Source of the DNA: an uncultured Gammaproteobacteria bacterium
Lineage (GTDB): Bacteria > Pseudomonadota > Gammaproteobacteria > Steroidobacterales > Steroidobacteraceae
Length of the DNA: 64,000 nucleotides
NCBI GenBank assembly: GCA_963695155.1
Contig: CAVOGD010000005.1
Span: 964 to 64,963 of the forward strand
Reading direction: 5' to 3'
Shown: in pieces, positions 3,579 to 23,371 of the stretch
Numbering within the stretch: position 1 is the first letter of the stretch
How the letters are laid out: the number at the start of each line of letters is the position of its first letter
The notes under the pieces: generated by a model
Database searches by the model: none
Told to the model about the DNA's origin: nothing
Seen by the model: only the letters and a program-made list of their open reading frames with translations
Made by a program: the position numbers and the translations under genes

Positions 3579-3826
3579 AACGCCTCTTCTCCCGATGGGG
3601 TCTTGATGGCACTCTGTGATGTCTCGAACTGCTCGTCTGTCCGGCAGCGCACGGAACTGCCTCCAAGTGGTTGATTCCCTGACGCGCTGCGCGAACAAGG
3701 TCGCCGCCCTTCACTCGGTGCGCCAGCGAACAGACTGCGCCACCTGTGGCGGAGCAATCTCGCAGAGTGGCCTGGCGAAGCCGCAATCCTGTGGCTACCT
3801 GCGACACTAGAAGGAGTCAGATTCAG

Positions 3827-4303
3827 ATGAATAGCCGCTCTCTACAATTCATGCAGATATGCGTCGTGGCAGCCGGGGCGATTGCGGCCATGATGATGAC
3901 ATCCTGTGCTCTAACCAGGGCTTCTTCACCAAAGCAGCTGAGCGCGAGCAATCCCACCGTTACCTATCAATATCGCAACGACGATGAACTGATCCAGGCC
4001 AACCAGCGCGCGGTCGCGTTCTGCGAGCCTTACCAGTCCTTGCCCCAGGCGCGAAGTTTTTCCAACGACCCCGAGGGTCGCAGGATCGTTGTTTTCGAAT
4101 GTGTCCAGACTTCCCAGGCTGCACCGGTTGACCATCCAGATTCTGCTCTCCGCTTCAACTACCGGACTGACCAGGAATTGCTGGAGGCGTCGCGAAATGC
4201 CCAGATCTACTGCGTGAAGATCGGCAGGCCGGGCGTTGTGTCGAATGTTGTGGTCCACGCAGATGGCAGCAAGACCGTTACGTTCCAGTGCAGCCCGAGG
4301 TAG
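3827..4303 (+). CDS. lipoprotein with an internally duplicated ~45-aa Cys-pair module
   Basis: AAGGAG lies 8 nt before the ATG at 3827. Signal and lipobox are MNSRSLQFMQICVVAAGAIAAMMMTSC. The two repeats are TVTYQYRNDDELIQANQRAVAFC...IVVFEC and LRFNYRTDQELLEASRNAQIYC...TVTFQC. Confidence 0.65.
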   Translation: MNSRSLQFMQICVVAAGAIAAMMMTSCALTRASSPKQLSASNPTVTYQYRNDDELIQANQRAVAFCEPYQSLPQARSFSNDPEGRRIVVFECVQTSQAAPVDHPDSALRFNYRTDQELLEASRNAQIYCVKIGRPGVVSNVVVHADGSKTVTFQCSPR

Positions 4304-4372
4304 TGCGGTAGTCTTGGACAGGCGCGCAGCCGGGTGTGGAGCTGGCGGGCGACCAGGCGTACAGTGGCGGAC

Positions 4373-5851
4373 GTGAACGCGCTGCTGCTGTATCCCGCGT
4401 TTCCCGACACATTCTGGAGCTTCCGGCACGCGCTGAAGTTCGTGGGCCGGCGCGCCGCCATGCCGCCCCTCGGTCTGGTCACCATCGCGCCCATGCTGCC
4501 GCGCAGCTGGAACCTCCGGCTCGTGGACGTCAACGTGCGCCCGCTCGCCGCGGCCGAGCTGGAGTGGGCCGACCTGGTGCTGGTCAGCGCGATGAGCGCC
4601 CAGCGCTCCTCGGCTCGAGCGGTGATCGCGCGCTGCCGTGCCGCTGGCAAGACCATCGTTGCGGGCGGACCGTTGTTCGACGCGGAGCAGGCGGGCTTTC
4701 CTGAAGTTGACCATTTCGTCCTCGGCGAGGCGGAGGCGACGCTGGCTCCGTTTCTAGCCGACCTTGAGGCCGGCCGAGCGCGGCATGTCTATCTTCCGTC
4801 CGTGGTGCCCGATCTGAGTGCCACCCCGGTGCCGCGTTGGGACCTGCTCAGACTCGCTGACTATCAGTCGATGAGCGTCCAGTTCTCGCGCGGCTGCCCG
4901 TTCGACTGCGAGTTTTGCGACATCACTGCACGCTTCGGGCACCGGCCGCGCACCAAGGCCCCCGAACAGATCATCGCCGAGCTGGATGCACTCCATGCCC
5001 AGGGCTGGCACGGCTCGGTCTTCTTCGTCGACGATAACTTCATCGGCAACGTGCGAGAGCTCAAGACGCGCCTGCTACCCACGCTCGTTGCCTGGCGGAA
5101 AGACAAGCGCGGCATGCCCTTCTTTACCGAGGCCTCGATCAACCTGGCGCGCAACCCGGCCCTGCTAGCGCTGATGGTTGAGGCCGGGTTCAACTCCGTG
5201 TTCATCGGCATCGAGACGCCGGACGACGCCGGTCTGGCCGAGTGCAACAAGCGACAGAACCGCGGCCGAGACCTGCTGGCCGACGTCCGCACCATCCAGC
5301 GCGCAGGTATGCAGGTGCAGGGTGGGTTCATCGTCGGCTTCGACCACGACACGCCGGAGGTGTTCCGGCGCATGGTCGAGTTCATCCAGGACAGCGGCAT
5401 CGTCACCGCGATGGTCGGCATCCTCAACGCGCCCAGCACCACACGTCTTTACGAACGCATGAAACGTGAGGGCCGGTTGCTGGGCGAGATGACCGGCGAC
5501 AACGTCGACGGCACCACCAACATCCTGCCGCGCATGGGGCTGGGTGCGCTTCGCGAGGGTTATCGAGACATCCTGCGCAGCCTGTACTCGCCCGGCCCGT
5601 ACTACCGGCGCGTGCGCACGTTTCTGCGCGAGTACCGTCCGCCGAAGCTTCGTGGGATTCCTGACTGGCGCCACCTGCTCGCGTTCTTCTACTCGGTGGT
5701 GCGTCTCGGGGTGCTCGGACGTGAGCGGTTTCACTACTGGGGCCTGCTCGGCTGGACACTGTGCCGCCGCCCGCAGCTGCTCGCTGAAGCCGTGACGTTG
5801 TCCATTTACGGGCATCACTTCCGCAAGGTCTACGGGGCGCTCCGCGCCTGA
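4373..5851 (+). CDS. B12-binding domain-containing radical SAM protein (DUF4070-type C-terminus)
   Basis: The N-terminus NALLLYPAFPDTFWSFRHALKFVGRRAAMPPLGLVTIAPMLP is typical of this family. Radical SAM motif FSRGCPFDCEFCDI (CxxxCxxC) is present. The ORF opens at GTG 4334; GTG 4373 fits family N-termini better. Confidence 0.85.
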   Translation: MNALLLYPAFPDTFWSFRHALKFVGRRAAMPPLGLVTIAPMLPRSWNLRLVDVNVRPLAAAELEWADLVLVSAMSAQRSSARAVIARCRAAGKTIVAGGPLFDAEQAGFPEVDHFVLGEAEATLAPFLADLEAGRARHVYLPSVVPDLSATPVPRWDLLRLADYQSMSVQFSRGCPFDCEFCDITARFGHRPRTKAPEQIIAELDALHAQGWHGSVFFVDDNFIGNVRELKTRLLPTLVAWRKDKRGMPFFTEASINLARNPALLALMVEAGFNSVFIGIETPDDAGLAECNKRQNRGRDLLADVRTIQRAGMQVQGGFIVGFDHDTPEVFRRMVEFIQDSGIVTAMVGILNAPSTTRLYERMKREGRLLGEMTGDNVDGTTNILPRMGLGALREGYRDILRSLYSPGPYYRRVRTFLREYRPPKLRGIPDWRHLLAFFYSVVRLGVLGRERFHYWGLLGWTLCRRPQLLAEAVTLSIYGHHFRKVYGALRA

Positions 5852-6338
5852 GCAGCCTGAGCCTTGCCGGCTCGATCGCGTCTCTGGACGACTGGGCGCT
5901 TGGGTAGCGCGCAGACACCCGGGCGAGCCGGTGGCCAAGTGCCCCGCGGTGCACGACCGTGCGGACCATTCCAGTGCGCGCTTCCACCCTGGGTACGCCA
6001 GAGGGGCGGAATTAGTCGCCGACACGCGGTTTTTCAGTTCACGCCTGAACTGCGATGTGTTCATCTGGGCCTTCGACGATATCCCGCAGTCGGATGGATA
6101 GGCATGTTCCTTAGGCTTCCCACAGCCTTCCCAAGGCTCTCGCCTTCATCACTATCTTCGGCTCTGCATGTCACGGAGCGTATGGGGGATGCCGCCAACA
6201 CCCAGATCGGGCTCGCATTGACCGGCAAGAGGCAGTCCTCATCTCGCCGGGCTGTTGACGCTACGTACGGCGCCGCACAGACCTTGGCGGGATGATTGCC
6301 GGATGCTTGGCGTAGATTTCAAGAGAAGGTAGGTTCCC

Positions 6339-6773
6339 ATGAATAGCGTTGCCCTGAAGTCCGGTCTCGTTGCGCTGACCGTTCTGCTTGTTGCCGCCTG
6401 CAGTTCCCAGCCCCGCTACAACAACACCTGTAGCAACTGTGGCACCGTCGACCGGATCGAGCGCGTCCAACTCCAGGACCAGCACCAGAGCATCGGCGCG
6501 GGTGCCGTGATTGGCGCCATCATCGGCGGTGCGGCCGGCAGCCAGATCGGTTCCGACGACAACCAGACGGCCGCCATCGCGGCCGGCGCGGTCGTCGGAA
6601 GCGTGATCGGCCACCAGGTCCAGAAGCGCGGCAACGCGAACCAAGACGGTTACCTGTTCGAAGTCAGGCTCGACGACGGGCGCTGGGCCAGGGTCACCCA
6701 GCTGGAAAACCCGGGCCTGCGCGTCGGCAGCCGCGTGATCATCGTCAACGACGAGGTGCAGCGCCTGCGCTGA
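6339..6773 (+). CDS. glycine zipper 2TM domain lipoprotein (SlyB-like)
   Basis: Lipobox is LLVAACSS. Glycine zipper reads GAGAVIGAIIGGAAGSQIGSDDNQTAAIAAGAVVGSVIGHQV. The C-terminal beta domain reads YLFEVRLDDGRWARVTQ. Confidence 0.8.
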   Translation: MNSVALKSGLVALTVLLVAACSSQPRYNNTCSNCGTVDRIERVQLQDQHQSIGAGAVIGAIIGGAAGSQIGSDDNQTAAIAAGAVVGSVIGHQVQKRGNANQDGYLFEVRLDDGRWARVTQLENPGLRVGSRVIIVNDEVQRLR

Positions 6774-6935
6774 ATGGTCGGTTGTGCGTCAGCTGTCGTC
6801 CTGGATCGTGACGACCATGTGTCGCCATTGTTGGAAACACCCGCGGATGGTCCTCTGTTCGCTACCGCACTGAGCTTTTTCCGACCCGAGGACACACTGG
6901 CCTGGCTATTCAATCCATGACCGAAGGTGAATCAG

Positions 6936-7151
6936 ATGAACTGGGACCGCATACAAGGCAACTGGAAGAGGGTTACCGGCAGGGCCAAGGAGCAGTGGGG
7001 CAAGCTGACGGATGACGACCTCGACGTCATCGCCGGTCGCCGCGAGCAACTGTCCGGCAAAATCCAGGAGCGTTATGGCATTGCCAAGGACGAGGCCGAG
7101 AAGCAGCTCGCGGCATGGGAGCGCAAGGCGACCGACTCCTGGTTCAACTAG
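6936..7151 (+). CDS. CsbD family stress protein
   Basis: MNWDRIQGNWKRVTGRAKEQWGKLTDDDLDVIAGRREQLSGKIQERYGIAKDEAEKQL is the canonical CsbD signature. GAAGG precedes the ATG at 6936. Confidence 0.85.
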   Translation: MNWDRIQGNWKRVTGRAKEQWGKLTDDDLDVIAGRREQLSGKIQERYGIAKDEAEKQLAAWERKATDSWFN

Positions 7152-7299
7152 GGCGGCGAACGCGTCTGAATCGCGAATGTGAAACCGGCCGGATGGGTCG
7201 GATTCTGGTTCGCAAACAGTTCTTGCCGGGAGCTTGCGCATGGGCGGCCCGGGTCGCCAGGCGCAGGATGACCCGGCCACGACAATCAGGAGAGACATC

Positions 7300-7449
7300 A
7301 TGCTTTGGACAATCGCCGTTATCTTGTTCGTTCTCTGGCTTCTGGGCCTTGTCAGTTCGTACACCATGGGAGGGTTCATTCACATCCTCCTGGTCCTGGC
7401 GGTCATCGTCATCCTGGTCAACGTGATCCAGGGCCGACGCGCACTCTAG
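7300..7449 (+). CDS. lmo0937 family small membrane protein
   Basis: MLWTIAVILFVLWLLGLVSSYTMGGFIHILLVLAVIVILVNVIQGRR. CAGGAGAG lies upstream of the ATG at 7300. Confidence 0.75.
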   Translation: MLWTIAVILFVLWLLGLVSSYTMGGFIHILLVLAVIVILVNVIQGRRAL

Positions 7450-7541
7450 GGGTCCCGCAGCGGCTCCATTGAGGCGGCCGATCTGGGGTCGGTTCACATG
7501 CCGTGAGAGAACAGGAAACGGTAAACGTCCCAATGTGGGCT

Positions 7542-7653: not shown

Positions 7654-8189
7654 ATGAACAAGTCCCTGGTGGCCGGATTGATTCTCGGTGGTGCCGCGAT
7701 CACGGCGGTCGGCGCCTACGCAATCACACAGACGAATCTGAATCCCTGGCAAGACTATGCGCAGGTCGTAGCGGTCGAGCCCGCGTTCGACAACAAACGG
7801 ATTCCACGGCAGGTCTGCAATGACGAGACGGTCACGCAACAGGTGCCTGTCAAGGACGAGAAGAGGATTGCCGGCACGGCAGTCGGCGCCGTCATAGGCG
7901 GCGTGCTGGAAACCAGATCGGCGGTGGCGACGGGCAGAAGCTCGCGACCGCAGCGGGCGCGGTCGCTGGCGGCTATGCCGGCAGCAAAGTCCAGAAGCGC
8001 ATGCAGCAAGGCAATACCGAAACCACCGTGGTACAGGACTGCAAGACCGTCTACGACAACCACAAGATTCCAGCCGGCTACTCGGTCACCTACCTGCTCG
8101 ACGGCAGGCGAGGCGTCGTACGCATGGATCATGACCCAGGCAAGCGGATTCGCGTCGAAGACGGCGAGCTGGTCCTGACCAGGTCCTGA
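7654..8189 (+). pseudogene. glycine zipper 2TM domain protein, frameshifted
   Basis: Frame 1 gives MNKSLVAGLILGGAAITAV...IAGTAVGAVIGGVL. The zipper then continues in the next frame (GNQIGGGDGQKLATAAGAVAGGYAGSKVQKRMQQGNTETTVVQDCKTVYD...). The shift is at the GG run 7908-7909 (ctggaaac where ctgggaaac is expected). Confidence 0.7.
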
Positions 8190-8230
8190 ATCCTGCGCCA
8201 ACAGGCGACTCGGAAATTAACCTAGATTGC

Positions 8231-8264
8231 AAAGGCCCCTTCTCGGGGGCCTTGTGCATTTGTT
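8231..8264 (+). terminator. candidate rho-independent terminator
   Basis: GGCCCC (8234-8239) pairs with GGGGCC (8246-8251), followed by TTGTGCATTTGTT. Confidence 0.45.
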
Positions 8265-8329
8265 GCACAGCAAGGCCAGGCTGTCGCGCATGCTCTGCGA
8301 CTCCACAAGAAATTCGCCGGAGTGACCGC

Positions 8330-9064
8330 GTGTTGATCCCGCACCGAAGGTATCTGGTCATCCTGAGCCTGATCTTCGCGGTCTGGTGGCTTTTTCTCGC
8401 CATCGCCCCCTGGCATCGCGACGTCTGGTGGACGGAGAACATGCTCGTCATCCCGGCTGTCGCATTTCTGGTGGGGTTCCATCGAAAGCTGCTGTTCTCA
8501 CGAGTGTCCTACACGCTGATATTCATCTTCATGTGCGTGCACCAGGTGGGCGCGCACTACAGCTACGCGGAAGTTCCTTACGACATGTGGGTTGAGAATC
8601 TCACCGGCGAGACTTTCAACGACCTCGTCGGCTGGCAACGCAACAACTTCGATCGTGTCGTCCACTTTTCCTACGGCTTGCTGCTCGCTTATCCCATTCG
8701 CGAGATCTTCCTGCGCGTTGCCGACGTGCGTGGATTCTGGGGATATTTCCTGCCGCTTGACCTGACGATGTCGACGTCGATGCTTTTCGAGTTGATCGAG
8801 TGGCTAGTGGCAGTGTTGTTCGGCGGGGGCCTCGGCCAGGCATACCTCGGAGCCCAGGGCGATATCTGGGATGCCCAGAGTGACATGGCACTGGCCAGCC
8901 TGGGCGCCCTCATCGCGATGCTGATGACGGTCGTCGTGAACTTGCGTTTCCAGCGCGATTTCAACCGTGATTGGGCCGAGAGCATCCGCGTGAAACACAA
9001 AGCCCCGCTCGGCGAAGACTCACTCGCAAGGATGACGCGCAAGCACTCCCGCAAGCGCAAGTAA
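8330..9064 (+). CDS. DUF2238 (YjdF-like) membrane protein
   Basis: WHRDVWWTENMLVIPAVAFLVGFHRKLLFSRVSYTLIFIFMCVHQVGAHYSYAEVPYDMW matches the family signature as I recall it. GTG 8330 is the likely start; the ORF opens at 8252. Confidence 0.8.
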   Translation: MLIPHRRYLVILSLIFAVWWLFLAIAPWHRDVWWTENMLVIPAVAFLVGFHRKLLFSRVSYTLIFIFMCVHQVGAHYSYAEVPYDMWVENLTGETFNDLVGWQRNNFDRVVHFSYGLLLAYPIREIFLRVADVRGFWGYFLPLDLTMSTSMLFELIEWLVAVLFGGGLGQAYLGAQGDIWDAQSDMALASLGALIAMLMTVVVNLRFQRDFNRDWAESIRVKHKAPLGEDSLARMTRKHSRKRK

Positions 9065-11821: not shown

Positions 11822-12582
11822 TCAGCGACCCCGCAGTCTGCGTGCGATAAGGGCTGGAATGCGAATCAGGAAACCAGCGAACAACCGCATGTGCATCCAC
11901 GTCAATAGAACATTGGTCCGCCCGTAGCGGAAATGCGAGACCCCGCCTTCCTCTGGGCGAAAATATCGAACCGCAGCCGGAAGATTCGACGGCCGGACCC
12001 CTTTCCAGCACAGCCGGACGGCAGCTTCGGCGTCGAAGTCGAAACCGCGCATCCAGATCCTGCGCCGCATGATTCGCTCTAGTGGAGCTGCCGGGTAGAC
12101 GCGGAACCCAAAAAGCGAGTCGTGATGGCCGCCCTAAGCGTCTCGACGTTCACCCACCAGTTCGAGATCCGGCGCCCGCGCACCCGCACGCGTGGGGCGC
12201 TCTCGTCAAAGACCGGCTCGCCTAGGATCATTGCGTCCGGCGCGGCACGCGACGCGGCCATGAATGGCGGGATTCGATCCGCCGGATGCTGTCCATCAGA
12301 ATCCATCGTGAGCACATGTGTAAAGCCTTCCTTCAGCGCGTCCCGCATGCCGTGAAGAATGGCTGCACCCTTGCCGCGGTTTCGCGGCAGCGTGAAGACA
12401 CGCAGGCCGGGGTCCTGATCGGCGATTGCGCGAAGCGCCTCACCCGTGCCGTCCGTGCTGCCGTCGACAATGACCCATATTGGCGCCCAGTGGGCGCGGG
12501 CCGCCGTCACGGTCTCGAATACCTTCGCACCCGGGTTGTAGCTTGGTATCACGACGACGTGAGTCGAGGAAGCCTGTTTCAT
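11822..12582 (-). pseudogene. family 2 glycosyltransferase, frameshifted
   Basis: The N-terminal part (MKQASSTHVVVIPSYNPG...VDGSTDGTGEAL...MDSDGQHP) ends at a stop at 12079. The C-terminal part (GHHDSLFGFRVYPAAPLERIMRRRIWMRGFDFDAEAAVRLCWKG...EGGVSHFRY) is in another frame. The shift is at the CCC run 12132-12134. Confidence 0.7.
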
Positions 12583-12841
12583 CGGCAACGCCTCACCCGG
12601 CCTGCTGCGGTGCATGCCGCGCGACGGCGAGAGACATCTTTGTCGCAGGAGTCGCCACCGCCTGGATCCTCAGGGAATCGTCCGCCCGCGTCGAGGCGGA
12701 GGAGTGTGAGTAGAACCTGGTTGCCCGGCACACATTCTACGTCAACGCCGCACTTCAAGACCCCACGCCCGGTGACCTGCCGGGGAAACCCGCCATGACC
12801 TGCGTGGGCTGGCGCGTTCGCGCCGATTGAGGAGGGCTGAG

Positions 12842-13640
12842 TGACCTTGCCCCCGTTCCCTGACGGTTCGTCGTTAGAGACTTGCCACTTCTGGCGTCCA
12901 ATTTCCCTGACGCTCTTGGGCGAACTCGTTCGGTGCCACGTTGCCGAGCAAGCTGTGCGGTGCATGTGCATTGCAATCGATGCGCCAGACCTCGATCTGG
13001 GCCCGGGCGTCGTCGATCGACAGGAACTGCGTGACGTTCAGGCATTCGTCGCGCAACCGGCCGTTGAACGACACTATGTGCCCGTTCTCAGTGGGTCTTC
13101 CCGGGCGGATGAGGTCGAGCTTCACGCCGCGCCGGTATGCCCATTCCTCGTGAACTCGCGACGTGAACTCGGTGCCGTGATCCACGGTGATCGACACCGG
13201 CCATCGAACAACTAATCGTGGACGAAATCCAAGCTCCAGCGCTCGTGTGTGCGCTGCGCCTGCGGCACGGACGCCGACGCAGGCGCATGTGCTTGCGACG
13301 ACGTACGCGCCTCTTGTTCACGAGCCAGCCCTCCCGCCGCAACATCACGCGGATGCCCTGGTACCCGAACTGCGGCCGAGCGTGCGCGATATCGCGGATA
13401 CGCAACCGCAATGCCGACTGGTCACGGGCCGTGCTCCTCGCGTACCACGCGGTGTGCGAAAACTCCGCCAGGCGACACGCTCGGCGTAGCGCTCCAAACG
13501 TGTGTTCTTCTCGCGCAACTAGCGCAACTCTCTCAGTTCGGTTAGCCCGAGCTTGTCGTACTTCTTCTCCCACAGATGGAAGCTCGCCTCGCTTACGCCT
13601 ATAGGTAGCACTTTCCGGTCTTTGCGGGAGAAGCAATGCG
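12842..13640 (-). mobile_element. decayed IS3-family (IS407/IS2-like) element: one terminal IR, orfA tail, internally deleted orfB
   Basis: A terminal repeat-like sequence TGACCTTGCCCCCGTTCCC starts at 12842. The orfB C-terminus is ITVDHGTEFTSRVHEEWAYRRGVKLDLIRPGRPTENGHIVSFNGRLRDECLN (12874-13197). The orfB N-terminus is RIRDIAHARPQFGYQGIRVMLRREGWLVNK and ERWSLDFVHD*LFDGR. The orfA tail is GVSEASFHLWEKKYDKLGLTELRELR*LREKNT. There are in-frame stops and about 55 aa of the DDE core is deleted. No second IR was found. Confidence 0.7.
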
Positions 13641-13734
13641 CCGTAGCGGGAGTATTGCAGGCTGGATCAGCGATCGCGCTTCACGGCGCGGCTGCTGGAT
13701 GGCGAGTGGATGACTGCGCTGTATGACCGACCCG

Positions 13735-13795
13735 ATATCGAGAAGTCCGATGGTCGGTCCGTGACGCCGGTGACCGCATGACATTTGAAGGGACC
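13735..13795 (+). repeat. repeat copy A (CGACCCGA-N9-GTCCGATGGTCGG plus GCCGGTGACCGCATGA)
   Basis: Hand alignment to copy C gives 30/37 identical, then 20/22 identical after a 24-nt insertion present only in C. Confidence 0.65.
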
Positions 13796-13907
13796 CTAAG
13801 TGGGTGCAAGACCCATGCCTGTCGGATTCGTCTCCCGAAATGGCCGCCTCTGCCCTGCCAGGTGACCTTCGAACCAGCCGGAACTTGCGTTTGCCGGTTG
13901 TTCTGAT

Positions 13908-13931
13908 AAGATAGTAATTAATTACTATCTT
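13908..13931. promoter_or_regulatory. perfect 24-bp palindrome, candidate TetR operator
   Basis: AAGATAGTAATT|AATTACTATCTT ends 17 nt upstream of the tetR ATG. It lies in an AT-rich stretch unusual for this DNA. Confidence 0.5.
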
Positions 13932-13947
13932 TATTGGGAAGACAGCC

Positions 13948-14556
13948 ATGAGCCAGAAGTCGAGGCATCTCCCTGCCGATCAACGGCGGGACGTCACGGT
14001 GGAGTCCGTGGTTGAACTTGCGGCGACGCGAAATCCCAGCGAGATAACGACCGCGGCCATCGCTACGCACATGAACCTCACGCAGGGCGCAGTGTTTCGT
14101 CACTTCCCCAGCAAGGACGCCATATGGCAGGCAGTCATGAAATGGGTTGCCGACACACTCCTGGCGACAATTGATCGCTCGGTCCAGGGAATTGACTCAC
14201 CGCTCGACGCGATGCAAGCCATGTTCATGGGGCATGTCGAGTTCGTGGTAACCCACCCGGGCGTTCCACGGATTCTGTTCGGTGAACTCCAGCGAGCCGA
14301 GTCGACCCCGGCCAAGCGCGAGGTGCAGACCCTGCTGAAGCGTTATGGAGAACGCCTGCATCAGCTCATTGAAAAAGGAAAGGCCTGCGGTGAACTGGAC
14401 GCCGCGCTCGACAATGAGGCTGCGGCCACGCTGTTCATTGGCACCATGCAAGGCTTGGTCATGCAATCGCTGCTTGCCGGCAACGTGCAACGCATACGCC
14501 GCGATGCGCCACGTGTCTTTGCGATTTATCGGCGTGGAATCGGTGGTGCCCAATGA
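13948..14556 (+). CDS. TetR/AcrR family transcriptional regulator
   Basis: The N-terminal HTH reads ITTAAIATHMNLTQGAVFRHFPSKDAIW. 202 aa. The stop overlaps the next start (ATGA at 14553). Confidence 0.9.
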   Translation: MSQKSRHLPADQRRDVTVESVVELAATRNPSEITTAAIATHMNLTQGAVFRHFPSKDAIWQAVMKWVADTLLATIDRSVQGIDSPLDAMQAMFMGHVEFVVTHPGVPRILFGELQRAESTPAKREVQTLLKRYGERLHQLIEKGKACGELDAALDNEAAATLFIGTMQGLVMQSLLAGNVQRIRRDAPRVFAIYRRGIGGAQ

Positions 14557-15704
14557 CAACTCTGCCGTTGCAAGGCCGAACCCTGGCATTGTTGGCCGTG
14601 ATCGTCCCGCTGCTCGCTCTGTTCGTCTATGTCGCGCTGCGGTCCGGACCGCTGGCGCCAGTTGCGGTCAGCGCCACACTGGTCGAATCGCGGGCGGTCG
14701 CCCCGGCCGCCTTTGGCATAGGTACCGTCGCGGCCCGCTATACGTACAAGATCGGCCCGACCTTTGCCGGGCGCGTGAAGCAAGTGGATGTGCAGGTCGG
14801 CGACCGGGTCAGCGCCGGGCAGGTGCTGGGCGAGATGGATCCGATTGACCTGGACGACCGGATTCGCTCGCAGTCATCGGCGCTCAAGCGCGCGCAGGCT
14901 CTTCTGCGCGAGGCGCAGTCGAGGCACGACCATGCGCAAACCCAGGCGCATCGCTACGAAGAACTCTATGCCGCACGCTTGGTCAGCGAGGAAGCTGCCA
15001 CGACCAGGCAACACGAGCTCAGGATAGCCGATGCCGCCAGGGCGGCCGCTCAGGAGGATCTCGCACGGGCCAGGTCCGATCACGACGGCCTGGTGGCGCA
15101 GAAGAGCAACCTGCGCCTGGTCGCACCGGTCGATGGTGTGGTAGCCGTGCGGCATGCTGACCCGGGCACGACCATCGTCGCTGGCCAGGCAGTGGTGGAA
15201 GTGATTGATCCCAGCAGCCTGTGGATCAATGTGCGTTTCGATCAAGTCAGTGCCGCGGGGATTGCCGCCGACCTCCCTGCGAGCATCGTGCTGCGTTCAC
15301 GCAACGGCCAGGCCATGACGGGTCGCGTGCTGCGTACCGAGCCTGTGGCCGACCCGGTCACCGAGGAGATTCTCGCCAAGGTGGTTTTCGATCAACTACC
15401 GGAGCCGCTACCACCGCTGGGCGAGTTGGCAGAGGTCACGGTTGACTTGCCGCCACTGCCTGCCGCCCCGGTCATTCCAAACGCCGCCGTTCAGCGTGTG
15501 GACGCCGAACTGGGAGTCTGGCAGGTCATAGGCGATGACTTGTTTTTTTCTCCGGTCACTCTGGGTGCTGCAGACTTGACTGGACTGGTGCAAGTTCAGC
15601 AGGGATTGGACGTCGGCGACCGGGTGATCGTTTATAGCGAAAAGGCGTTGAGCGCCCGTAGTCGCATTCACCTGGTCGAACAGCTTCCAGGAGTCAAGCA
15701 GTGA
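14553..15704 (+). CDS. HlyD/DevB-type membrane fusion (periplasmic adaptor) protein
   Basis: 383 aa with an N-terminal TM helix, a coiled-coil (IRSQSSALKRAQALLREAQSRHDHAQTQAHRYEELY), a lipoyl-like motif (VDVQVGDRVSAGQVLGEMD) and a beta-barrel. Confidence 0.85.
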   Translation: MTTLPLQGRTLALLAVIVPLLALFVYVALRSGPLAPVAVSATLVESRAVAPAAFGIGTVAARYTYKIGPTFAGRVKQVDVQVGDRVSAGQVLGEMDPIDLDDRIRSQSSALKRAQALLREAQSRHDHAQTQAHRYEELYAARLVSEEAATTRQHELRIADAARAAAQEDLARARSDHDGLVAQKSNLRLVAPVDGVVAVRHADPGTTIVAGQAVVEVIDPSSLWINVRFDQVSAAGIAADLPASIVLRSRNGQAMTGRVLRTEPVADPVTEEILAKVVFDQLPEPLPPLGELAEVTVDLPPLPAAPVIPNAAVQRVDAELGVWQVIGDDLFFSPVTLGAADLTGLVQVQQGLDVGDRVIVYSEKALSARSRIHLVEQLPGVKQ

Positions 15705-16909
15705 TCAGCCTGGCTGGGCGCGACATCATGCACGCCTGGGGGAAATTCGTCTTTACAGGCGTGGGGCTGGGCCTGTTGATTGGCGTGACCTTGTCAATGG
15801 CGGGCATTTATCGCGGCATGGTGGACGACGGCAAGGCGCTGCTCAGCAATAGCGGTGCTGATCTCTGGGTCGTGCAACAGGACACGCTGGGCCCTTACGC
15901 GGAGTCGTCCAGTGTCAATGACGAAGCGTATCGCGGGATTCTTGCCATGCCAGGAATCGCTCAGGCCGCCAACGTCACCTACCTGACCATGCAGGTGCGC
16001 AAGGGCGAACGCGACGTTCGGGCCATGGTGGTTGGTATTTCGCCCGGCAAGGTAGGAGCGATACCGGGATGGCCGCCCTACCTGGTGGCGGGGCGCCAGG
16101 TCACACGCAGTCACTACGAGGCGGTGGCCGACATTGCCAGCGGCTTTGGCCTCGGAGACCGTATCACCATCCGCCGCAATCAATACCATGTCGTGGGCCT
16201 GACACGTCGCATGGTGTCTTCCAGCGGCGACCCGATGGTCTTCATTCCGCTCAAGGACGCCCAGGAAGCACAGTTCCTCAAGGACAACGATGCCATCTGG
16301 CAGAGTCGCCGTCGCACCGAAGCCAACCCTGCTTTCAACCGGCCCGGCGTGCCCGACCTGCTCGATGCGGTGATCGCATCCCAGAGCACCAATTCGTATG
16401 TCAATGCGGTGCTGGTCAGGTTGCAGCCCGGGTATTCTCCAGACGACGTGGCCGATTCAATTCGCCGCTGGAAGCGCCTGACGGTTTACACCCGGGCACA
16501 AATGGAGGAGATCCTCGTAGGAAAGCTCATTGCCACGTCGTCCAGACAGATCGGCATGTTCCTGGTAATTCTCTCCATTGTCAGCGCCGCAATTGTCGCC
16601 TTCATCATCTATACCCTGACACTAGGCAAGATTCGCGAGATCGCGGTACTCAAGCTGATCGGCACCCGCAATCGCACCATTGCCGGCATGATCATGCAGC
16701 AGGCCATTGCACTCGGTGTGATCGGCTTCGTGGTGGGCAAGATCACCGCCACCTTGTTCATGGCGCCGATCTTTCCGAAGTATGTGCTGCTTGAGCCTGC
16801 CGACTCGGTACGCGGCTTTGCCATAGTCGTAATTATCTGTGTGCTGTCCAGCGTCATTGCGATCCGCGCAGCACTCAAGGTCGATCCGGCCGAGGCCATT
16901 GGTGGATAA
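15701..16909 (+). CDS. ABC transporter permease, FtsX/MacB/DevC-type
   Basis: 402 aa with one TM helix, a large periplasmic domain and three C-terminal TM helices (FtsX-like: IAVLKLIGTRNRTIAGMIMQQAIALGVIGF). The GTG start overlaps the previous stop (GTGA). Confidence 0.85.
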   Translation: MISLAGRDIMHAWGKFVFTGVGLGLLIGVTLSMAGIYRGMVDDGKALLSNSGADLWVVQQDTLGPYAESSSVNDEAYRGILAMPGIAQAANVTYLTMQVRKGERDVRAMVVGISPGKVGAIPGWPPYLVAGRQVTRSHYEAVADIASGFGLGDRITIRRNQYHVVGLTRRMVSSSGDPMVFIPLKDAQEAQFLKDNDAIWQSRRRTEANPAFNRPGVPDLLDAVIASQSTNSYVNAVLVRLQPGYSPDDVADSIRRWKRLTVYTRAQMEEILVGKLIATSSRQIGMFLVILSIVSAAIVAFIIYTLTLGKIREIAVLKLIGTRNRTIAGMIMQQAIALGVIGFVVGKITATLFMAPIFPKYVLLEPADSVRGFAIVVIICVLSSVIAIRAALKVDPAEAIGG

Positions 16910-16910
16910 C

Positions 16911-17621
16911 ATGGCTGGCAAAGGCATCCGAATAGAGGGGCTCAGGAAACGGTATGGCAAGGCCGATACCGCTGTTGATGCACTGAAAGGCGTCGACATG
17001 CAGGTGGCGCCTGGCGAGGTGGTGGGTTTGATCGGGCCCTCCGGCTCCGGCAAGACAACGTTGCTGAAATGTCTGGGGGCCGTCATCGATCCTACTGCCG
17101 GCCGCATGACTCTGGGCGACGAGGAAATTTATAACAATGGCTGGAAGGTGCGTGACCTGCGAGCCTTGCGGCGCGACAAGATCGGTTTCGTGTTCCAGGC
17201 GCCTTACCTGATTCCGTTTCTCGATGTCACGGATAACGTGGCATTGCTGCCGATGCTGGCGGGCTCCTCCAACACAGAGGCGCGAACGAGGGCGCTCGAG
17301 CTTTTCACTGCCCTGGAAGTGCAGCATCGCGCGCGCGCCATGCCCTCACAGCTATCCGGCGGTGAACAGCAACGGGTCGCGATTGCGCGTGGACTGGTCA
17401 ACCGCCCGCCCGTCATCCTGGCGGACGAGCCTACCGCACCGCTCGACAGCGAACGTGCCATGGCGGTTGTCAAGATCCTGAACGACATGGCGCGCAAGTA
17501 CGAAACTGCGATCATTGTTGTTACACACGACGAAAAGATCATTCCTACATTCAAGCGCATTTATCACATTCGTGACGGAGTGACTCATGAAGAGGCCGGC
17601 GAGGGACGAGGGTTCGAATGA
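16911..17621 (+). CDS. ABC transporter ATP-binding protein (DevA/MacB-NBD-like)
   Basis: Walker A GPSGSGKTT, signature LSGGEQQRVAIARG, Walker B VILADEPT. ATG at 16911. Confidence 0.9.
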   Translation: MAGKGIRIEGLRKRYGKADTAVDALKGVDMQVAPGEVVGLIGPSGSGKTTLLKCLGAVIDPTAGRMTLGDEEIYNNGWKVRDLRALRRDKIGFVFQAPYLIPFLDVTDNVALLPMLAGSSNTEARTRALELFTALEVQHRARAMPSQLSGGEQQRVAIARGLVNRPPVILADEPTAPLDSERAMAVVKILNDMARKYETAIIVVTHDEKIIPTFKRIYHIRDGVTHEEAGEGRGFE

Positions 17622-17719
17622 GCCTGTTCCCGCTCGCCGCACGTGACGTGGCGGGACCGCTCGTGACCGCGCGTCCGGCAACGGCCCACGCTGCTCGGAT
17701 CAGTGCGGCGAGGCCACCG

Positions 17720-20369
17720 TCATCCGGTGGTGCGCCACCTGGGTCGCATCATCGAACAGACTCCGTCAGGTCCTTCTCGACGGTGGCTCACGATCGTGCT
17801 CCGCCGCATTAAGAGCGAGACCAGGTGGTCGCGTGTATCGCGGACCAGCCCGACGACCGCGGATTCCACAGCCGGCCTGGCGATCAGGAAGCCCTGGACC
17901 GACACCTCACCGCAGGCCGCGAGAAAGTCGAGTTGGGCGGGACGCTCCACTCCCTCATCGTGACCTGTAGTCCGAGGCTGCGGCAGAGACGGATGATCGA
18001 GTGTGCGATCGCGGCCGAGCGCGGGCTGCTGTCGAGCGCGGCGATCACACTGCGGTCGAGCTTGACCCGGCTGAGCGGCAACCGCTCGATGGAAGTCAGC
18101 GACGAAAACCCGGTGCCGAAGTCGTCGAGCGCGGTATCGACCCTCATCATCCGCAATCCCTGCAATGCCTCGACGGTCACGGCGCCGGTCTGCAGCATTG
18201 TCTCCGTCAGCTCGAGTTCGATCGCTTCGGAGGCAAACCGTGCCGGGCGAGCAGACGTTCGAAATCGACCAGGAAATTGCCGGTCACGAACTGCTGCGCC
18301 GACACGTTGATCGCCACGCGCGCGTCAGGCCAACCGCTGCGCCGCCAATTGCTGACTGCCTCGGCAGCGGTCTCGAGAATCCAGTCGTTCAAGTCGAGCA
18401 TCAGGCCGGATTCCTCGACGATCTCGATGAACTCGCCGGCCGGAATGATCTGATTGTCGTTGAGTTGCCAACGCAGAAGTGCCTCGACGGCGATAGTGCG
18501 CTGCGTGCGCAGGCACACTTGCGGCTGGTAATGAAGCACGAACTCCCCGCCCTCGATGGCCTTGCGCAGAGCCTGCTCCACGCGGAAACGGTTCGACGCC
18601 TCACGAGCATGGATGGGTCGTGGATGCAATGTCGATTGCGACCGAGTTCCTTGGCACGAAACAGAGCGGCGTCTGCTGCGCGCAGCAGCGACGTCGCATC
18701 GCGGCCATGTTCCGGGTACATCGCGACGCCGCAGCTCGCGCCGATAGAGACCTCAGCGCCGATCAATGAGTAATGGCCGCTGAAAGCACCCGACCAGGTG
18801 CTCGGCGCGTCGCTCGACTTCAGTGGCGTCGCCCGAGTAGTTGAACACAAGCGTGAATTCGTCGCCGCCCAGCCTCGCGATGACAGCGGTTTCGCCGGCG
18901 ATCCAGCGCAGGCGCGCGCCGATCTCCGTCAGCACCCGGTCGCCGAAGTCGTGGCCCAGAGTGTCGTTGACGGTCTTGAAGTTGTCGAGATCGAGGAACA
19001 ACACGGCGATGTGGGATCCCGCGGAGCCTGCGGCGTCCGCAGTGTTGAGCATTTCATTCAGGCGCTGGAACAGCTGCCGTCGGTTCGGCAGGTTGGTGAG
19101 CGGATCGTGGTCGGCGAGGTGTCTGAGCTGCAGCGTGCGTTCCTCGACACGCTGCTCGAGCTGCGCCTGGTACGTCTTGACGACGAGCTCGGCGTTCGTC
19201 AGCTCCGTGGCCAAGTGGTTGAACGCGGAGGAGAGCTCATCGATCTCCCGGGCGCCGCCGCGCATCACGCGAGTTGCAAGATTACCGGACGCTAGAAGGC
19301 GGGTGCTCGCTGTCAGCCGGCGCACCGGCCGGGTAACTGCCCAGGCCGTGGTGAGCAATGCAAGCAACGTGAGCAGAATCGCCTTGTAGGTGGCGGTCCT
19401 GAGCGTTTGCTCGGACTGCGCGACGGCCTGCTGTGCGCCCGGGGCAGCCGCGCTGAATGCATGCCATGCGGGCGCTTCGACGTTCTCGCGAAAGTCCGAG
19501 GCGAGCGCGTTGCCGCCAACCGCAAATGCCTCCTGCCGCACCTCCATTTCCACACCGAGCCGCAGGGCCCGGCGTCGCTGCTCGACCGCCTGGCCGAAAT
19601 CCTCCAGCTGCAGCGCCAGCCAGCTTCGGCCGGGCGAGACTGACAATTCCGCGCGGTGGGCATCGAAGGCCCGGCGCAGTCGTGTTTCGCCACCGTTCGG
19701 CGCTGCGGCGAAGTTGCCACCGCCGGTCAGCTCGCTCGATACGTCACTCCGTGCCGCCTCGACGGCGCTTGCCAGTTCCGCCAGCGACGGTCGGGCCATG
19801 AGGCTGTTATCAACCAGGATACCGCCGCCGCCCGCGCCTTTGATGCGTCGGTCCAGTGCAGAGAACGCCGCCTCGAGCGCCCCGATTGATCGTCGGCGCT
19901 CGTCCTGCATGTCCAGGAGGCGGAATCCCTCGGCCTCGTGCTCGGCAACCTGCTGCAACAGATGACCCGCCGCTGGGGACGCCTCAGTTGCGCCAGCATC
20001 CACAGTTCGTCTTGCTGCGACTGTCAATCGCTCAGCCGCCGCCATCACGGCGGCGCGGTTGTCGCTCGTGTCGGCACGGACGTAAGCGAGGACAACTCGA
20101 TCGAAGGCAGCGAGGCCTTCGCCCAGGTCCCGCACGCTGCGCGACAACGGTTCGAACTGCTGCTGCATCTTCGCGAGCTCGGCCGTGGCGCTCTGGGTGC
20201 TGCGCAGCGAGACGACGATGGCCGCTGCGAACGCGACGATGACGAGCGTGTAGCCGAGCACCAGCCACACGCCAATCGGCAGGCCGATCGGGCGGCTGGG
20301 TGGAGCCGGCGAATTCGGGGTCGTCATCACGGGCACAGCAAGCTGCCGATCCCCCCGGGTCATGGACAT
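17720..20369 (-). pseudogene. membrane sensor diguanylate cyclase/phosphodiesterase (HAMP-GGDEF-EAL), four frameshifts
   Basis: The domain order is continuous only if the frame changes at about 18790, 18620, 18200 and 17950. The segments are: TM+HAMP+GGDEF (LARLGGDEFTLVF), the GGDEF end (VSIGASCGVAMYPEHGRDATSLLRAADAALFRAKELGRN), EAL (FVLHYQPQV...EALLRW, then DDFGTGFSSLTSIERLPLSRVKLD, then GVERPAQLDFLAACGEVSVQGFLIARP). Confidence 0.75.
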
Positions 20370-20620
20370 CGATTTGACGATAATGCGGCCCCGCAGCTGA
20401 TCTTCATGAGATCTGGGTCACAAAGACAAGCGCTTTCTGCGCCGAAGGCCTCTGTTTTTGGCGGGCCTGATACGCGGAACTTCAATGGACCGCAACGTGT
20501 TGCGCGCAACTCAGAGCGCCTTCCGCCTGGAAAGGCCTGACAGGCAATCAAAGAAGTGTCACCAGGTCCGTCAATTGTGACGCCACCGGTCTCACCCACA
20601 CTTGATCAGGTGGCTATTGA

Positions 20621-20719
20621 CTAGCGGGGAGGCGACCCGAACCCCAGATGTCCGATGGTCGGCCAGCCTGCTGCCGCGTCGGGTCCTCTAGAGGTGACCT
20701 GACTCGTCGCCTCCCCTAG
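20621..20719 (+). promoter_or_regulatory. candidate structured 5' leader upstream of ORF 20751-20963
   Basis: A perfect 11-bp long-range stem (GGGGAGGCGAC at 20626-20636 with GTCGCCTCCCC at 20706-20716) encloses repeat copy B. An overlapping alternative helix pairs GACCCGA (20634-20640) with TCGGGTC (20679-20685). CCTCC in the 3' strand is anti-SD-like. Confidence 0.3.
20633..20662 (+). repeat. repeat copy B (CGACCCGA-N9-GTCCGATGGTCGG)
   Basis: Same bipartite motif, spacing and orientation as copies A and C. Confidence 0.55.
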
Positions 20720-20750
20720 AATGATCTCTTCGCTGAAAGGAGCATTGACC

Positions 20751-20963
20751 ATGGGCTTTTCAACTCAGAGCACCGTCGCGGACCTTCTGGACAACGAGAC
20801 AACCAAGGCCGTACTCGAGCAAGTCCTGCCCGGTATCGCCAACCACCCACAGATCGGTATGGCGCGAGGGATGTCCCTGGCCACGGCGGCGCAGTTCTCC
20901 GGCGGACTGATCAGCCAGGACGCGCTCGACAGGATCGACGCCGCGCTCAAGGCCCTGGGCTGA
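20751..20963 (+). CDS. 70-aa hypothetical protein
   Basis: AAGGAG (20737-20742) lies 8 nt before the ATG at 20751. Sequence is MGFSTQSTVADLLDNETTKAVLEQVLPGIANHPQIGMARGMSLATAAQFSGGLISQDALDRIDAALKALG. No family recognised. Confidence 0.5.
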   Translation: MGFSTQSTVADLLDNETTKAVLEQVLPGIANHPQIGMARGMSLATAAQFSGGLISQDALDRIDAALKALG

Positions 20964-21025
20964 CGCGACACGCGGACGCAGGAGCAGAAACCCAGGCACT
21001 CAGTTGGGCTTGATTGCAGGCCCTG

Positions 21026-21154
21026 GTCTCTCCACAACCCCTTGAACCGATCCGGCGCCATCTCCGTGTAGCGCACGGTGTGGACAATGTTCTTGTGCCC
21101 CAGGTAGTGCTGCAGCGCCCCAGTTCGCGCCTGCGTCACACAAGACCGACCCAA
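21026..21154 (-). pseudogene. tyrosine recombinase/integrase, C-terminal stub only
   Basis: ALQHYLGHKNIVHTVRYTEMAPDRFKGLWRD matches the conserved C-terminal end (catalytic Tyr region) of FimB/phage-type integrases. Only about 85 nt separate it from the tRNA, so the remaining ~300 aa are absent. Confidence 0.6.
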
Positions 21155-21225
21155 TATTCAATAGTCCGATGGTCCGCCCGGATGGCAGGCGATGGCCGGC
21201 TGGCGATGCCGGTGACCGCATGAAA
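21144..21225 (+). repeat. repeat copy C (CGACCCAA-N9-GTCCGATGGTCCG, 24-nt insertion, GCCGGTGACCGCATGA)
   Basis: Lies between the integrase stub and tRNA-Phe. Direct repeat of copy A, 7.4 kb away. Confidence 0.65.
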
Positions 21226-21241
21226 TTCAACGAGTTGGAAA

Positions 21242-21317
<76 letters not shown>

Positions 21318-21418
21318 ACAGGCAGGGTCGCGTATTACACAAGTACCGCGCACGGTCGTCAAGAAACCCTGCGGGCGGCATTCGACCGCAGCGCGGAATG
21401 ATGCGAGGATCCGCGGCC

Positions 21419-21985
21419 ATGAGCCGATTCCCTTCACTTCCAGAACGCCCCACGCTGGCCGACGTCTTCAAGCGCTTCCCGGAAGGGGCCAGACCCCTGC
21501 TCGAGTATCACGACGCCCTGTTGCGCGGCCCGTCGCCGCTCACGATCGCCGAGCGCGAGTTGATCGCCGCGTTCGTGTCGGGACTCAACGCCTGTGAGTA
21601 CTGCCACGGCGCGCACCGCATCGTCGCCGAGGTGCACGGCATGGACCCGGACCTGTTCGCGAAACTCGTGGCCGACCCGGCTGCCGCGGGCGTAGACGCG
21701 AAGCTGCTGCCCCTGCTGGCCTACGTGCGCAAGCTGTCGAACGCGCCGGCGCGCGTGACCGACGCCGATGCCGCGGCTGTGTACGCCGCCGGCTGGGACG
21801 AGCAGGCCTTGTTCCACGCCGTCTCGATCTGCGGGCTGTTCAACATGATGAACCGGATCGTCGAGGGCTGCGGCGTCGTGACCGATGCCACCACGCAAGC
21901 AGAACAGCGCGCCCGTCACGAGTCGCTCAAGGACCGGCCCGATACCTACCGTTCCTTTGGCAGCAAGATCGGCCTCGATCAATAA
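21419..21985 (+). CDS. carboxymuconolactone decarboxylase family / AhpD-like peroxidase-related protein
   Basis: SPLTIAERELIAAFVSGLNACEYCHGAH (CxxC-H motif) and ALFHAVSICGLFNMMNRIV. Confidence 0.85.
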   Translation: MSRFPSLPERPTLADVFKRFPEGARPLLEYHDALLRGPSPLTIAERELIAAFVSGLNACEYCHGAHRIVAEVHGMDPDLFAKLVADPAAAGVDAKLLPLLAYVRKLSNAPARVTDADAAAVYAAGWDEQALFHAVSICGLFNMMNRIVEGCGVVTDATTQAEQRARHESLKDRPDTYRSFGSKIGLDQ

Positions 21986-22012
21986 TCCGACGACACGCCC
22001 CCGGGGAGTCCC

Positions 22013-23371
22013 ATGGACAGCCTGCACGCCTGGATCACGTCGCTGAACTCGTTCGTCTGGGGTCCGGCCATGCTGGCGCTGATCCTGGGCACCGGTTTCT
22101 TCCTGCAGCTGCGGCTCGGCGGCATGCCGATCCGCCAGATCGGCGCCGGCTTCCGCCTGGTGTGGCGCGGCCGCACGGGCGATGCCGGCGCACACGGCGA
22201 GGTCACGCCGTTCGCCGCCCTGATGACCGCGCTGGCGGCCACGGTGGGCGTGGGCAATATCGCGGGCGTGGCCACGGCCATCGCGCTCGGCGGACCGGGC
22301 GCGGTGTTCTGGATGTGGGTCACCGCGCTGGTCGGCATGGCGACCAAGTACGCCGAGGTGGTGCTGGCGGTGCACTTCCGCGAGCGCGACGAGAATGGCC
22401 GCTTCGTGGGTGGCCCCATGTACGCCATCAAGAACGGCCTCGGCCGGCGCTGGGCCTGGCTGGGTGCTGCGTTCGCCGTGTTCGGCGGCCTGGCCGGGTT
22501 CGGCATCGGCAACATGGTGCAGGCCAACACCATCGCGGCTGCGCTCGGCAATTCGTTCGGGCTGGACCCGGGTGTCATCGCCACGGCGCTGCTGGTGGTG
22601 ACCGCGGCGGTCATCCTGGGCGGCATCCAGCGCATCGCGGCCGTCGCCAAGCGGCTCGTGCCGTTCATGATCGTGGCCTACATCGGCGGCGCGCTCGCCG
22701 TGCTGTTCGTGCATGCCGCCGAGGTGCCGGCCGCCTTCATGCTGATCGTGGACAGCGCCTTCACGCCGACCGCCGCCACCGGCGGCTTCGCGGGCGCGGC
22801 CGTCATGGCCGGCATCCGCTTCGGCGTGGCGCGCGGCATTTTCTCCAACGAAGCGGGCCTCGGCACGGCCGGCATCGCACAGGCGGCGGGCCAGAGTTCC
22901 AGCCCGGTGCGCAGCGGCCTGGTCGGCATGATGGGCACGTTCCTGGACACCATCGTCGTCTGCACCATGACCGCGCTCGCCATCGTCGCGTCCGGCGCCT
23001 GGACGACCGGCGAGACCGGCGCGGTATTGACGCAGCTCGCGTTCGAGTCGGCGCTGCCCGGGCTGGGCGGCAGCATGGTGGCGGTCGCGGTGACCGTGTT
23101 CGCGGTGACCACGATCTTCGGCTGGGCCTACTACGGCGAGCGCTGCTGGCAGTTCCTGCTGGGCGTGAAGATCATCGTCCCGTACCGCATCCTGTGGTGC
23201 GCGGCGGTGTTCCTGGGCGCGATCACGCACCTCGACCTGGCCTGGCAGGTGGCCGACACGCTCAACGCCCTGATGGCGCTGCCGAACCTCGTTTCGCTTC
23301 TGGCGCTGTCGCCGGTGATCGTGCAGTTGACGCGACAGCAACTGGCGGCCGCGCTGGCGTCCGCGCCCTGA
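22013..23371 (+). CDS. alanine/glycine:cation symporter (AGCS) family transporter
   Basis: 452 aa, polytopic. Family-typical motifs are FAALMTALAATVGVGNIAGVATAIALGGPGAVFWMW and GIFSNEAGLGTAGIAQAAG. Confidence 0.9.
   Translation: MDSLHAWITSLNSFVWGPAMLALILGTGFFLQLRLGGMPIRQIGAGFRLVWRGRTGDAGAHGEVTPFAALMTALAATVGVGNIAGVATAIALGGPGAVFWMWVTALVGMATKYAEVVLAVHFRERDENGRFVGGPMYAIKNGLGRRWAWLGAAFAVFGGLAGFGIGNMVQANTIAAALGNSFGLDPGVIATALLVVTAAVILGGIQRIAAVAKRLVPFMIVAYIGGALAVLFVHAAEVPAAFMLIVDSAFTPTAATGGFAGAAVMAGIRFGVARGIFSNEAGLGTAGIAQAAGQSSSPVRSGLVGMMGTFLDTIVVCTMTALAIVASGAWTTGETGAVLTQLAFESALPGLGGSMVAVAVTVFAVTTIFGWAYYGERCWQFLLGVKIIVPYRILWCAAVFLGAITHLDLAWQVADTLNALMALPNLVSLLALSPVIVQLTRQQLAAALASAP

Follow-up and report, generated by a model that had tools for sequence, protein, structure and literature searches.

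The stretch of DNA considered here, in the following termed the window, comprises 64,000 nt of contig CAVOGD010000005.1 (assembly GCA_963695155.1) from an uncultured gammaproteobacterium of the family Steroidobacteraceae, and it begins 963 nt from the contig end. It carries a gene for tRNA-Phe, the single such gene among the 52 tRNA genes of the assembly, and to the left of it a region of low GC content in which three imperfect copies of a short sequence (A, B and C) are found, all in the same, direct orientation. An initial annotation of the window had claimed three direct repeats, all of which were found again, and had placed a 7.4-kb module between A and C. The repeats belong to a family of sequences, termed arms, that adjoin tRNA-Phe in related genomes; they were scored with a sequence-only model (R1) built from copy C and 10 arms of other genomes, which was used to scan 30 kb with the filters off. 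The features at the center of the analysis are:

21242-21317, minus strand: tRNA-Phe(GAA) gene, the integration target (ARAGORN; Rfam tRNA, 75.2 bits)
1-21241, no strand assigned: low-GC foreign region with 58-66% GC, reaching the contig start
13725-13786 (shared part; 13601-13786 with its leftward extension), plus strand: copy A, a degenerate arm (R1 E-value 3.9e-7 for 13725-13767)
20630-20666, probably reaching ~20686 via the block CTGCCGCGTCGG, plus strand: copy B, a short arm fragment (R1 E-value 0.003)
21144-21227 (family unit to 21241), plus strand: copy C, a complete arm and trailer of tRNA-Phe (R1 83 bits, E-value 3.5e-25)
~5993-6040, minus strand: degenerate 3′ fragment of tRNA-Phe, from the 3′ end to the anticodon loop (89% identity to the tRNA over 38 nt)

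The intact tRNA-Phe gene points with its 3′ end towards copy C and the foreign DNA; 17 nt separate this end from the part of C that is shared, while the family unit of C ends one base before the gene. To the right of the gene, from 21500 on, the GC content is 70-74%, and the genome mean is 70%. The right flank is formed by an alanine:sodium symporter gene, and no recombinase gene flanks the tRNA gene. The whole stretch left of tRNA-Phe is an island array, and the 7.4-kb module given initially does not describe its extent, as the foreign region covers at least 22 kb from tRNA-Phe to the contig start.

The left blocks of A and C agree in 30 of 37 nt, the same count as given in the initial annotation; C then contains 24 additional nt, after which the right blocks agree in about 21 of 23 nt (20 of 22 had been claimed). 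The boundaries needed adjustment. Copy A, assigned to 13735-13795, is real but starts 10 nt lower and its shared part ends earlier; copy C, assigned to 21144-21225, keeps its start and is extended at its end; and copy B, assigned to 20633-20662, is present and wider than supposed. A scan of both strands of the assembly (2.57 Mb, 8 contigs) gave three exact matches to the 11-mer GTCCGATGGTC, none of them outside A, B and C, and a search for the bipartite core with up to three mismatches yielded only four more matches in the assembly, all of them poor. The three copies lie at a single locus within 7.5 kb of tRNA-Phe and are the three best R1 matches in the 30 kb scanned, the next match having an E-value of 0.088. 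Copy C can be aligned from end to end with arms of the related genomes G011, G003, G004, G002 and G014. Copy A is more similar to an arm of G002 (86% over 44 nt) than to C (81%); it lacks the 24 nt mentioned above, which contain two GATGG units, as well as the last ~12 nt of the arm and the tRNA core, and its homology ends directly after CATGACATT (13786). Copy B corresponds to model positions 4-37 followed by CTGCCGCGTCGG, a block that matches arms in relatives, and it contains the exact 11-mer and CGACCCGA at the spacing of the family; the GATGG units and the tRNA core are missing from it too.

A search with 21100-22100 as query against 41 related genomes revealed C-like sequences in several species of the same genus, adjoining either tRNA-Phe or a fragment that matches its 3′ part only. 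Alignment of 17 sites gave an arm of ~98 nt with the consensus GACCGACCCaATATCCAATAGTCCGATGGTC..CCCGGATGGC.C.CGATGGTCGCC.TGCCGCG...GCGGCATG.AA.TCAACGAGTTGGAAG, followed by TGGTGGCCAGGG..., which is the tRNA 3′ end on the opposite strand; in one subfamily the arm is ~190 nt long. Arms were detected by R1 in 9 of the 16 genus genomes, and the arm of G001 is a shorter version of ~62 nt that R1 missed. Nearly every arm abuts tRNA-Phe or a 3′ fragment of it. In G000, G004, G011, G013, G014 and G001 an arm directly follows the full tRNA-Phe, and the fragments beside other arms stop either ~45 nt from the 3′ end, i.e., in the anticodon loop, or ~16-20 nt from it, in the T stem-loop. These are positions reportedly used by tyrosine integrases (Williams 2002, Nucleic Acids Res 30:866). 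In three cases (G002_a, G011_f and G011_g) the break in the T stem-loop is followed by the common sequence GGGTGAGGCCGG.... A, B and C are copies of this attachment-site arm, or trailer, lying directly 3′ of tRNA-Phe. The same pattern of arm end plus tRNA 3′ end was found in 110 stretches of public metagenomes from freshwater and sediment. In 80 of these loci that were fetched, 81 joints are present, of which 13 abut a full tRNA-Phe, ~55 a fragment of 33-52 nt and ~8 a fragment of 10-18 nt. A second tRNA-Phe call with an arm (77 nt, anticodon at position 35) lies on a separate small contig of G004 (G004:C446 116-192) and represents either strain heterogeneity of the metagenome-assembled genome (MAG) or a second copy.

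Two sequence motifs characterize the arms. In copy C, GATG(G/C) is present as four direct repeats at intervals of 10-14 nt (GATG at 21168, 21181, 21191 and 21205), and the stretch that bears them is missing from A, from B and from one arm of G011 (997547), which fits slippage between the repeats as the probable route of loss in A and B. By analogy to the arm-type sites of integrases and excisionases, the GATGG repeats may bind a recombination protein; as the arm carries such direct repeats, the protein-binding site considered by the initial annotation can be accommodated as a sub-function. In the compact arms of G001 (G001:C2 4143, 6684, 7794, 9085 and 12009) and in G011_a (5680) the far end is formed by GCGGA-N7-TCCGC with a variable loop. 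Its stems and spacing equal those of the anticodon arm of tRNA-Phe (GCGGA-CTGAAAA-TCCGC), and elsewhere in those loci it is rare; the arms of the genome studied here keep only CGGACTATTG of it. The motif could be the fossil of an earlier core or a second site bound by a recombinase.

In relatives, arms and tRNA fragments often form tandem arrays. In G011, which is assembled as a single 3.1-Mb contig, tRNA-Phe is located at 995.5 kb and at least 10 arms extend from there up to 1074.5 kb, i.e., over 79 kb, and in G001 tRNA-Phe is accompanied by four joints at a spacing of 1.1-2.9 kb. The arms of one genome diverge by 15-25% and fall into three subfamilies, and the T stem of core c in G011 has the allele of another species, unlike the tRNA of G011 itself. 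These observations indicate that the units were imported separately and did not arise by local duplication. Such import accords with the geometry of integration: given an anticodon-loop crossover, the arm and the 3′ half of the tRNA would come as one block from one source.

The closest relative, G002, with flanks that are 86-89% identical, allows a relative dating of copy A. G002 keeps several segments of the window in the same order (1-3170, 7176-7477, a few short pieces and 13601-13786), and the last of these is its own extended arm (G002:C7:4826-5020), so that ~125 nt of additional homology lie left of copy A. The collinearity of A with this distal arm suggests that A is older than the split of the two species. 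In G002 the arm runs on into a 16-nt tRNA core, whereas in the window unrelated sequence and then tetR follow after 13786; between its arm and its tRNA, G002 has other content, and its full tRNA-Phe has a different trailer. A and C are not a fresh pair of left and right attachment sites (attL and attR) of one 7.4-kb element, as had been considered initially: A is collinear with the arm of G002, and C belongs, as its arm, to the unit nearest the tRNA. The broader idea of att-like scars in a tandem island array was borne out by the comparative data, with the correction that the repeat is the arm beside the core and not the crossover core, which in such arrays is the 3′ half of tRNA-Phe. The degenerate tRNA fragment at 5993-6040, a putative further att core within the foreign region, lies 7.7 kb beyond copy A. 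It is located in a 4-kb segment (3170-7176) that is absent from G002, and beyond the core it matches G002:C7:5148-5182, a piece found in G002 on the opposite side of the arm; the two genomes are therefore rearranged here. A further difference is seen at the other end of the gene, where ~16 kb (G002:C7 8416-24524) separate the 5′ flank of tRNA-Phe from the alanine:sodium symporter gene in G002, compared to ~30 nt in the window (21391 to 21419), and the other side of tRNA-Phe is therefore also variable.

On the evidence established here, namely the family to which the repeats belong, its association with tRNA-Phe and fragments of it, the arrays, the foreign base composition and cargo confined to one strain, copies A, B and C are probably relic att arms left in a tandem array of islands at tRNA-Phe that has since decayed, and the arms would owe their origin to integrase activity. 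Elements entering tRNA-Phe would carry their own tRNA-Phe 3′ half plus arm as attachment site, and crossover would take place in the anticodon loop, less often in the T loop. The incoming copy would complete the tRNA, and the earlier resident copy would be displaced outward as arm plus tRNA fragment, so that successive rounds would line up islets in a tandem array, with an arm at the end of each. In the genome studied here the array would have decayed, with C left intact and now serving as trailer of the sole tRNA-Phe gene, A an older arm and B a remnant of 35-55 nt, the latter two having lost the tRNA core and the GATGG direct repeats. The 7.4 kb from A to C would be cargo, namely a tetR-ABC exporter of plasmid type, a disrupted GGDEF sensor gene, a 70-aa open reading frame (ORF) and a recombinase stub. 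As no recombinase for the tRNA-Phe site is left in the genome, the repeats would now be inert scars. Everything left of tRNA-Phe would then be a graveyard of imported DNA in which the repeats mark the junctions of units, and the arm family would offer a simple sequence marker for island joints at tRNA-Phe across sediment metagenomes and this uncultured genus of high GC content.

One trace of a recombinase is left in the window:

21026-21124, minus strand: C-terminal 33 residues (TGALQHYLGHKNIVHTVRYTEMAPDRFKGLWRD) of a FimB-like small tyrosine recombinase (tblastn)

This stub, which lies between the block of the 70-aa ORF and copy C, had been taken for the remainder of an integrase. It is real, and its source is a small FimB-like recombinase, which as the island integrase is only a candidate: the residues match the C-terminal end of a full 211-aa tyrosine recombinase of G006 at 88% identity (G006:C122 14096-14731; PF00589 at 3.8e-42), and the DNA matches at 88-91% in G006 and G002. 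The N-terminal ~170 residues and the native stop codon are lost, and no full copy was found in the genome, whose four PF00589 genes all lie elsewhere. The FimB-like recombinase was rejected as the enzyme of the arrays; it occurs beside a tRNA-Phe fragment in G006 alone, where it is oriented opposite to the stub, and is absent from 11 other array loci. G006:C122 encodes, besides the 211-aa protein, a 376-aa integrase (7828-8958), both in low-GC DNA ending at a tRNA-Phe 3′ fragment (15055-15095), and these two are the only recombinase genes seen close to any joint; neither a tRNA gene nor a fragment was detected beside the 376-aa gene.

Several results speak against relic att arms. No tRNA core adjoins A or B, so that the direct repeat of the tRNA 3′ part which defines an att pair is missing at the distal boundary of the pair A-C, although the larger array does contain a fragment. 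The arm is conserved for 100-200 nt past the tRNA, more than the length commonly given for such blocks of identity. No recombinase gene adjoins any of the arms examined: a PF00589 search of ten genus genomes detected no integrase in or beside the arrays except for the two G006:C122 genes, which are also the only matches in 17 genus loci and of which neither has the usual layout of tRNA and integrase gene. G011 and G003, both with arrays, encode two PF00589 proteins each genome-wide, which are likely XerC and XerD. Finally, a phmmer search of 1552 ORFs in 326 kb of metagenome loci around the 81 joints, for which six tyrosine recombinases of diverse kinds plus a serine resolvase served as queries, returned no recombinase, although all positive controls were picked up; this result is consistent but is weakened by short contigs and MAG binning.

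The missing integrases are one argument for another explanation, according to which the arrays are made up of integrase-less, cassette-like islets of 1-11 kb that accumulate at tRNA-Phe, being integrated and excised in trans by an integrase encoded elsewhere, on a plasmid, a phage or a large integrative and conjugative element (ICE). The only conserved part would then be the 110-250 nt of tRNA-Phe 3′ half plus arm, and arrays would grow in the manner of integrons or cis-mobilizable elements (CIMEs). The absence of tyrosine and serine recombinases around the metagenome joints and from the arrays of G011, G002, G003 and G014 agrees with this, as do the small size and mixed content of the islets (genes for Fic, hydrolase, AraC, cold-shock, sigma-54 activator and VapC proteins), the sharp stop of inter-unit homology at the arm edges and the ratio of 5 to 1 between joints and complete tRNA-Phe genes. 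However, lack of an integrase is weak evidence where metagenome contigs are short and broken at repeats and where mobile DNA is lost in MAG binning, no candidate for a trans-acting integrase tracks the arrays (G011 and G003 have XerC/D only), neither a circular form nor polymorphism was observed, and the decay seen across the window, with its insertion sequence (IS) relic and recombinase stub, suits fossils at least equally well. The explanation is judged unlikely; if true, the islets would constitute a tRNA-anchored analogue of the integron. It was also considered that the arm is a native trailer, i.e., a host element for 3′ processing or termination of the tRNA-Phe transcript or a small RNA, with the additional copies as by-products that play no part in recombination. 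It does directly follow the full tRNA-Phe in the six genomes listed above, a small hairpin with a few compensatory changes is located ~25 nt past the tRNA, and as tRNA-Phe is single-copy, an incoming element must bring a workable trailer, so that such a role could coexist with relic att arms. Yet the trailer of the full tRNA-Phe of G002 differs, the tRNAs of G006, G007 and G009 have no adjoining arm, neither strand yielded a consensus fold with RNAalifold (-2.1 and -0.4 kcal/mol, 8-9 scattered pairs), the arm has no Rfam match, and 5-10 copies per genome would be left unexplained; a native trailer is judged quite improbable. In a more general screen for structured RNA in 12000-23000, only the tRNA passed Rfam.

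A dispersed repeat of the repetitive extragenic palindromic (REP) or miniature inverted-repeat transposable element (MITE) type, or chance similarity, can practically be dismissed. The copies are short, imperfect, GC-rich and intergenic, and A contains an 8-bp inverted repeat (GACCGACC...GGTCGGTC), features that such repeats would have. The genome-wide counts refute it: the 11-mer is confined to A, B and C, which rules out a REP-like family, all three copies in 2.57 Mb lie at one locus, and family members elsewhere are tied to tRNA-Phe as well, while the E-values are far below chance. The dispersed small repeat family proposed initially was accordingly dropped, and the generic genome-wide REP-like motif that the initial annotation had named as evidence against an island was not found, only these three copies at one locus. 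Three further candidates were rejected. Copy A is not a terminal inverted repeat of the neighboring IS3 relic, which lacks its first ~170 nt, and arm homology occurs in IS-free loci. A gene split across the att site as in SSV-type integrases was considered because a conserved ATG of the arm opens a frame antisense through the tRNA; at 14 joints all such frames end after 21-105 codons and none enters a gene. Clustering of the 1552 ORFs of the 80 metagenome loci revealed no conserved arm-side gene family except for a DDE transposase, and a large ORF cluster over the arm was merely translated arm plus tRNA.

Tandem accretion of integrative elements followed by decay to CIMEs is established elsewhere, e.g., for ICESt1/ICESt3 of Streptococcus thermophilus (PMC5704250, section 2.3), and the type of structure described here is thus already known. 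As in that system, tandem units are found at the 3′ end of a target gene with repeated att sites between them, most of them without integration genes; 3 arms and 1 tRNA fragment are present in the window, and 5 to at least 10 integrase-free units in relatives. In contrast to ICESt1/ICESt3, the target is tRNA-Phe of an uncultured genus with ~70% GC, the repeat consists of a core plus an arm of 100-200 nt, no functional partner element or integrase is present in any array examined, and two of the three arms here have lost the core. With the islands of tyrosine integrases at tRNA genes (as reported by Williams 2002, and in PMC4891358 for the Asn-tDNA hot spots of Klebsiella) the locus shares the position at the 3′ end of an intact, restored tRNA, a 3′ fragment of ~45 or ~16 nt at the far joint, the foreign composition and cargo that varies by strain, and the variable presence in relatives. 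In contrast to such islands, no integrase gene lies beside the tRNA, the 33-residue C-terminal stub being all that is found inside the element, and the block of homology extends far past the tRNA end. Repeated site-specific insertion at one single-copy small-RNA gene is also a feature of the ssrA-linked island arrays of Dehalococcoides as described in PMC3146451, with a different target gene and lineage. Integron cassette arrays are similar in having small mixed units arrayed at one locus, each ending in a conserved recombination site of ~60-250 nt. The likeness is restricted to the layout, as integrons are characterized by IntI, attI and attC, whereas no IntI-type gene flanks tRNA-Phe, the arms have no conserved, attC-like fold, the site is derived from a tRNA, and the units contain several genes with their own regulators. 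What is less ordinary in the arrays at tRNA-Phe is the long conserved arm and the lack of a linked integrase across many joints. If this lack around the 81 joints is not an artefact of assembly, it would point to islets mobilized in trans.

The cargo between and around the copies comprises the following features:

13898-17622, plus strand: tetR, membrane-fusion protein, FtsX/MacB permease and ABC ATPase genes of the DevBCA/MacAB type (Pfam), strain-specific
17720-20369, minus strand: HAMP-GGDEF(-EAL) sensor gene, apparently broken, with HAMP and GGDEF in a 538-aa ORF (18753-20369)
20752-20963, plus strand: 70-aa ORF, island cargo common to G011 and G004
12700-13600, minus strand: IS3-family relic with orfA/orfB in three frames (six-frame translation), 5′-truncated at ~13600

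The tetR-devBCA genes have no DNA match in the 15 other genus genomes. Over 3.7 kb they are 75.5% identical at the nucleotide level to a four-gene module on plasmids of Citrobacter, Klebsiella and Aeromonas, and more than 100 enterobacterial and Aeromonas plasmids carry it (e.g., NZ_CP026237.1 8039-11754). In pCFR-9161 the module is located beside IS4321/IS5075, a resolvase and a fragment of a Tn3-type transposase, i.e., in a Tn3/Tn21-type setting. The exporter is recent cargo and kin of a plasmid-borne module. Such a close match to a plasmid module is striking for a bacterium with ~70% GC; on the plasmids, the module runs on into cytochrome c and an outer-membrane factor. Paralogues of the GGDEF sensor are found elsewhere in most genus genomes with 64-68% identity. 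The IS3 relic with a truncated end beside copy A, as described initially, is real, and its orfA is cut within a few nt of the left start of the extended copy A (13601).

The 70-aa ORF, which has no Pfam match, is 84-88% identical at the DNA level in G011 and G004, the alignment extending from ~60 nt before the ATG through the stop codon. Copy B is located at a break in synteny, the homology of the ORF block to G011 and G004 beginning at ~20690, just right of B. An 11-bp helix (GGGGAGGCGAC / GTCGCCTCCCC) can be drawn around copy B (20626-20716); it is not kept upstream of the 70-aa ORF in G011 and G004, and its 5′ strand is derived from the arm, which argues against a conserved regulatory fold. 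In the metagenomes, 12 of the 80 loci encode a DDE (rve-type) transposase next to joints, on their arm side, and insertion sequences are therefore frequent in these arrays.

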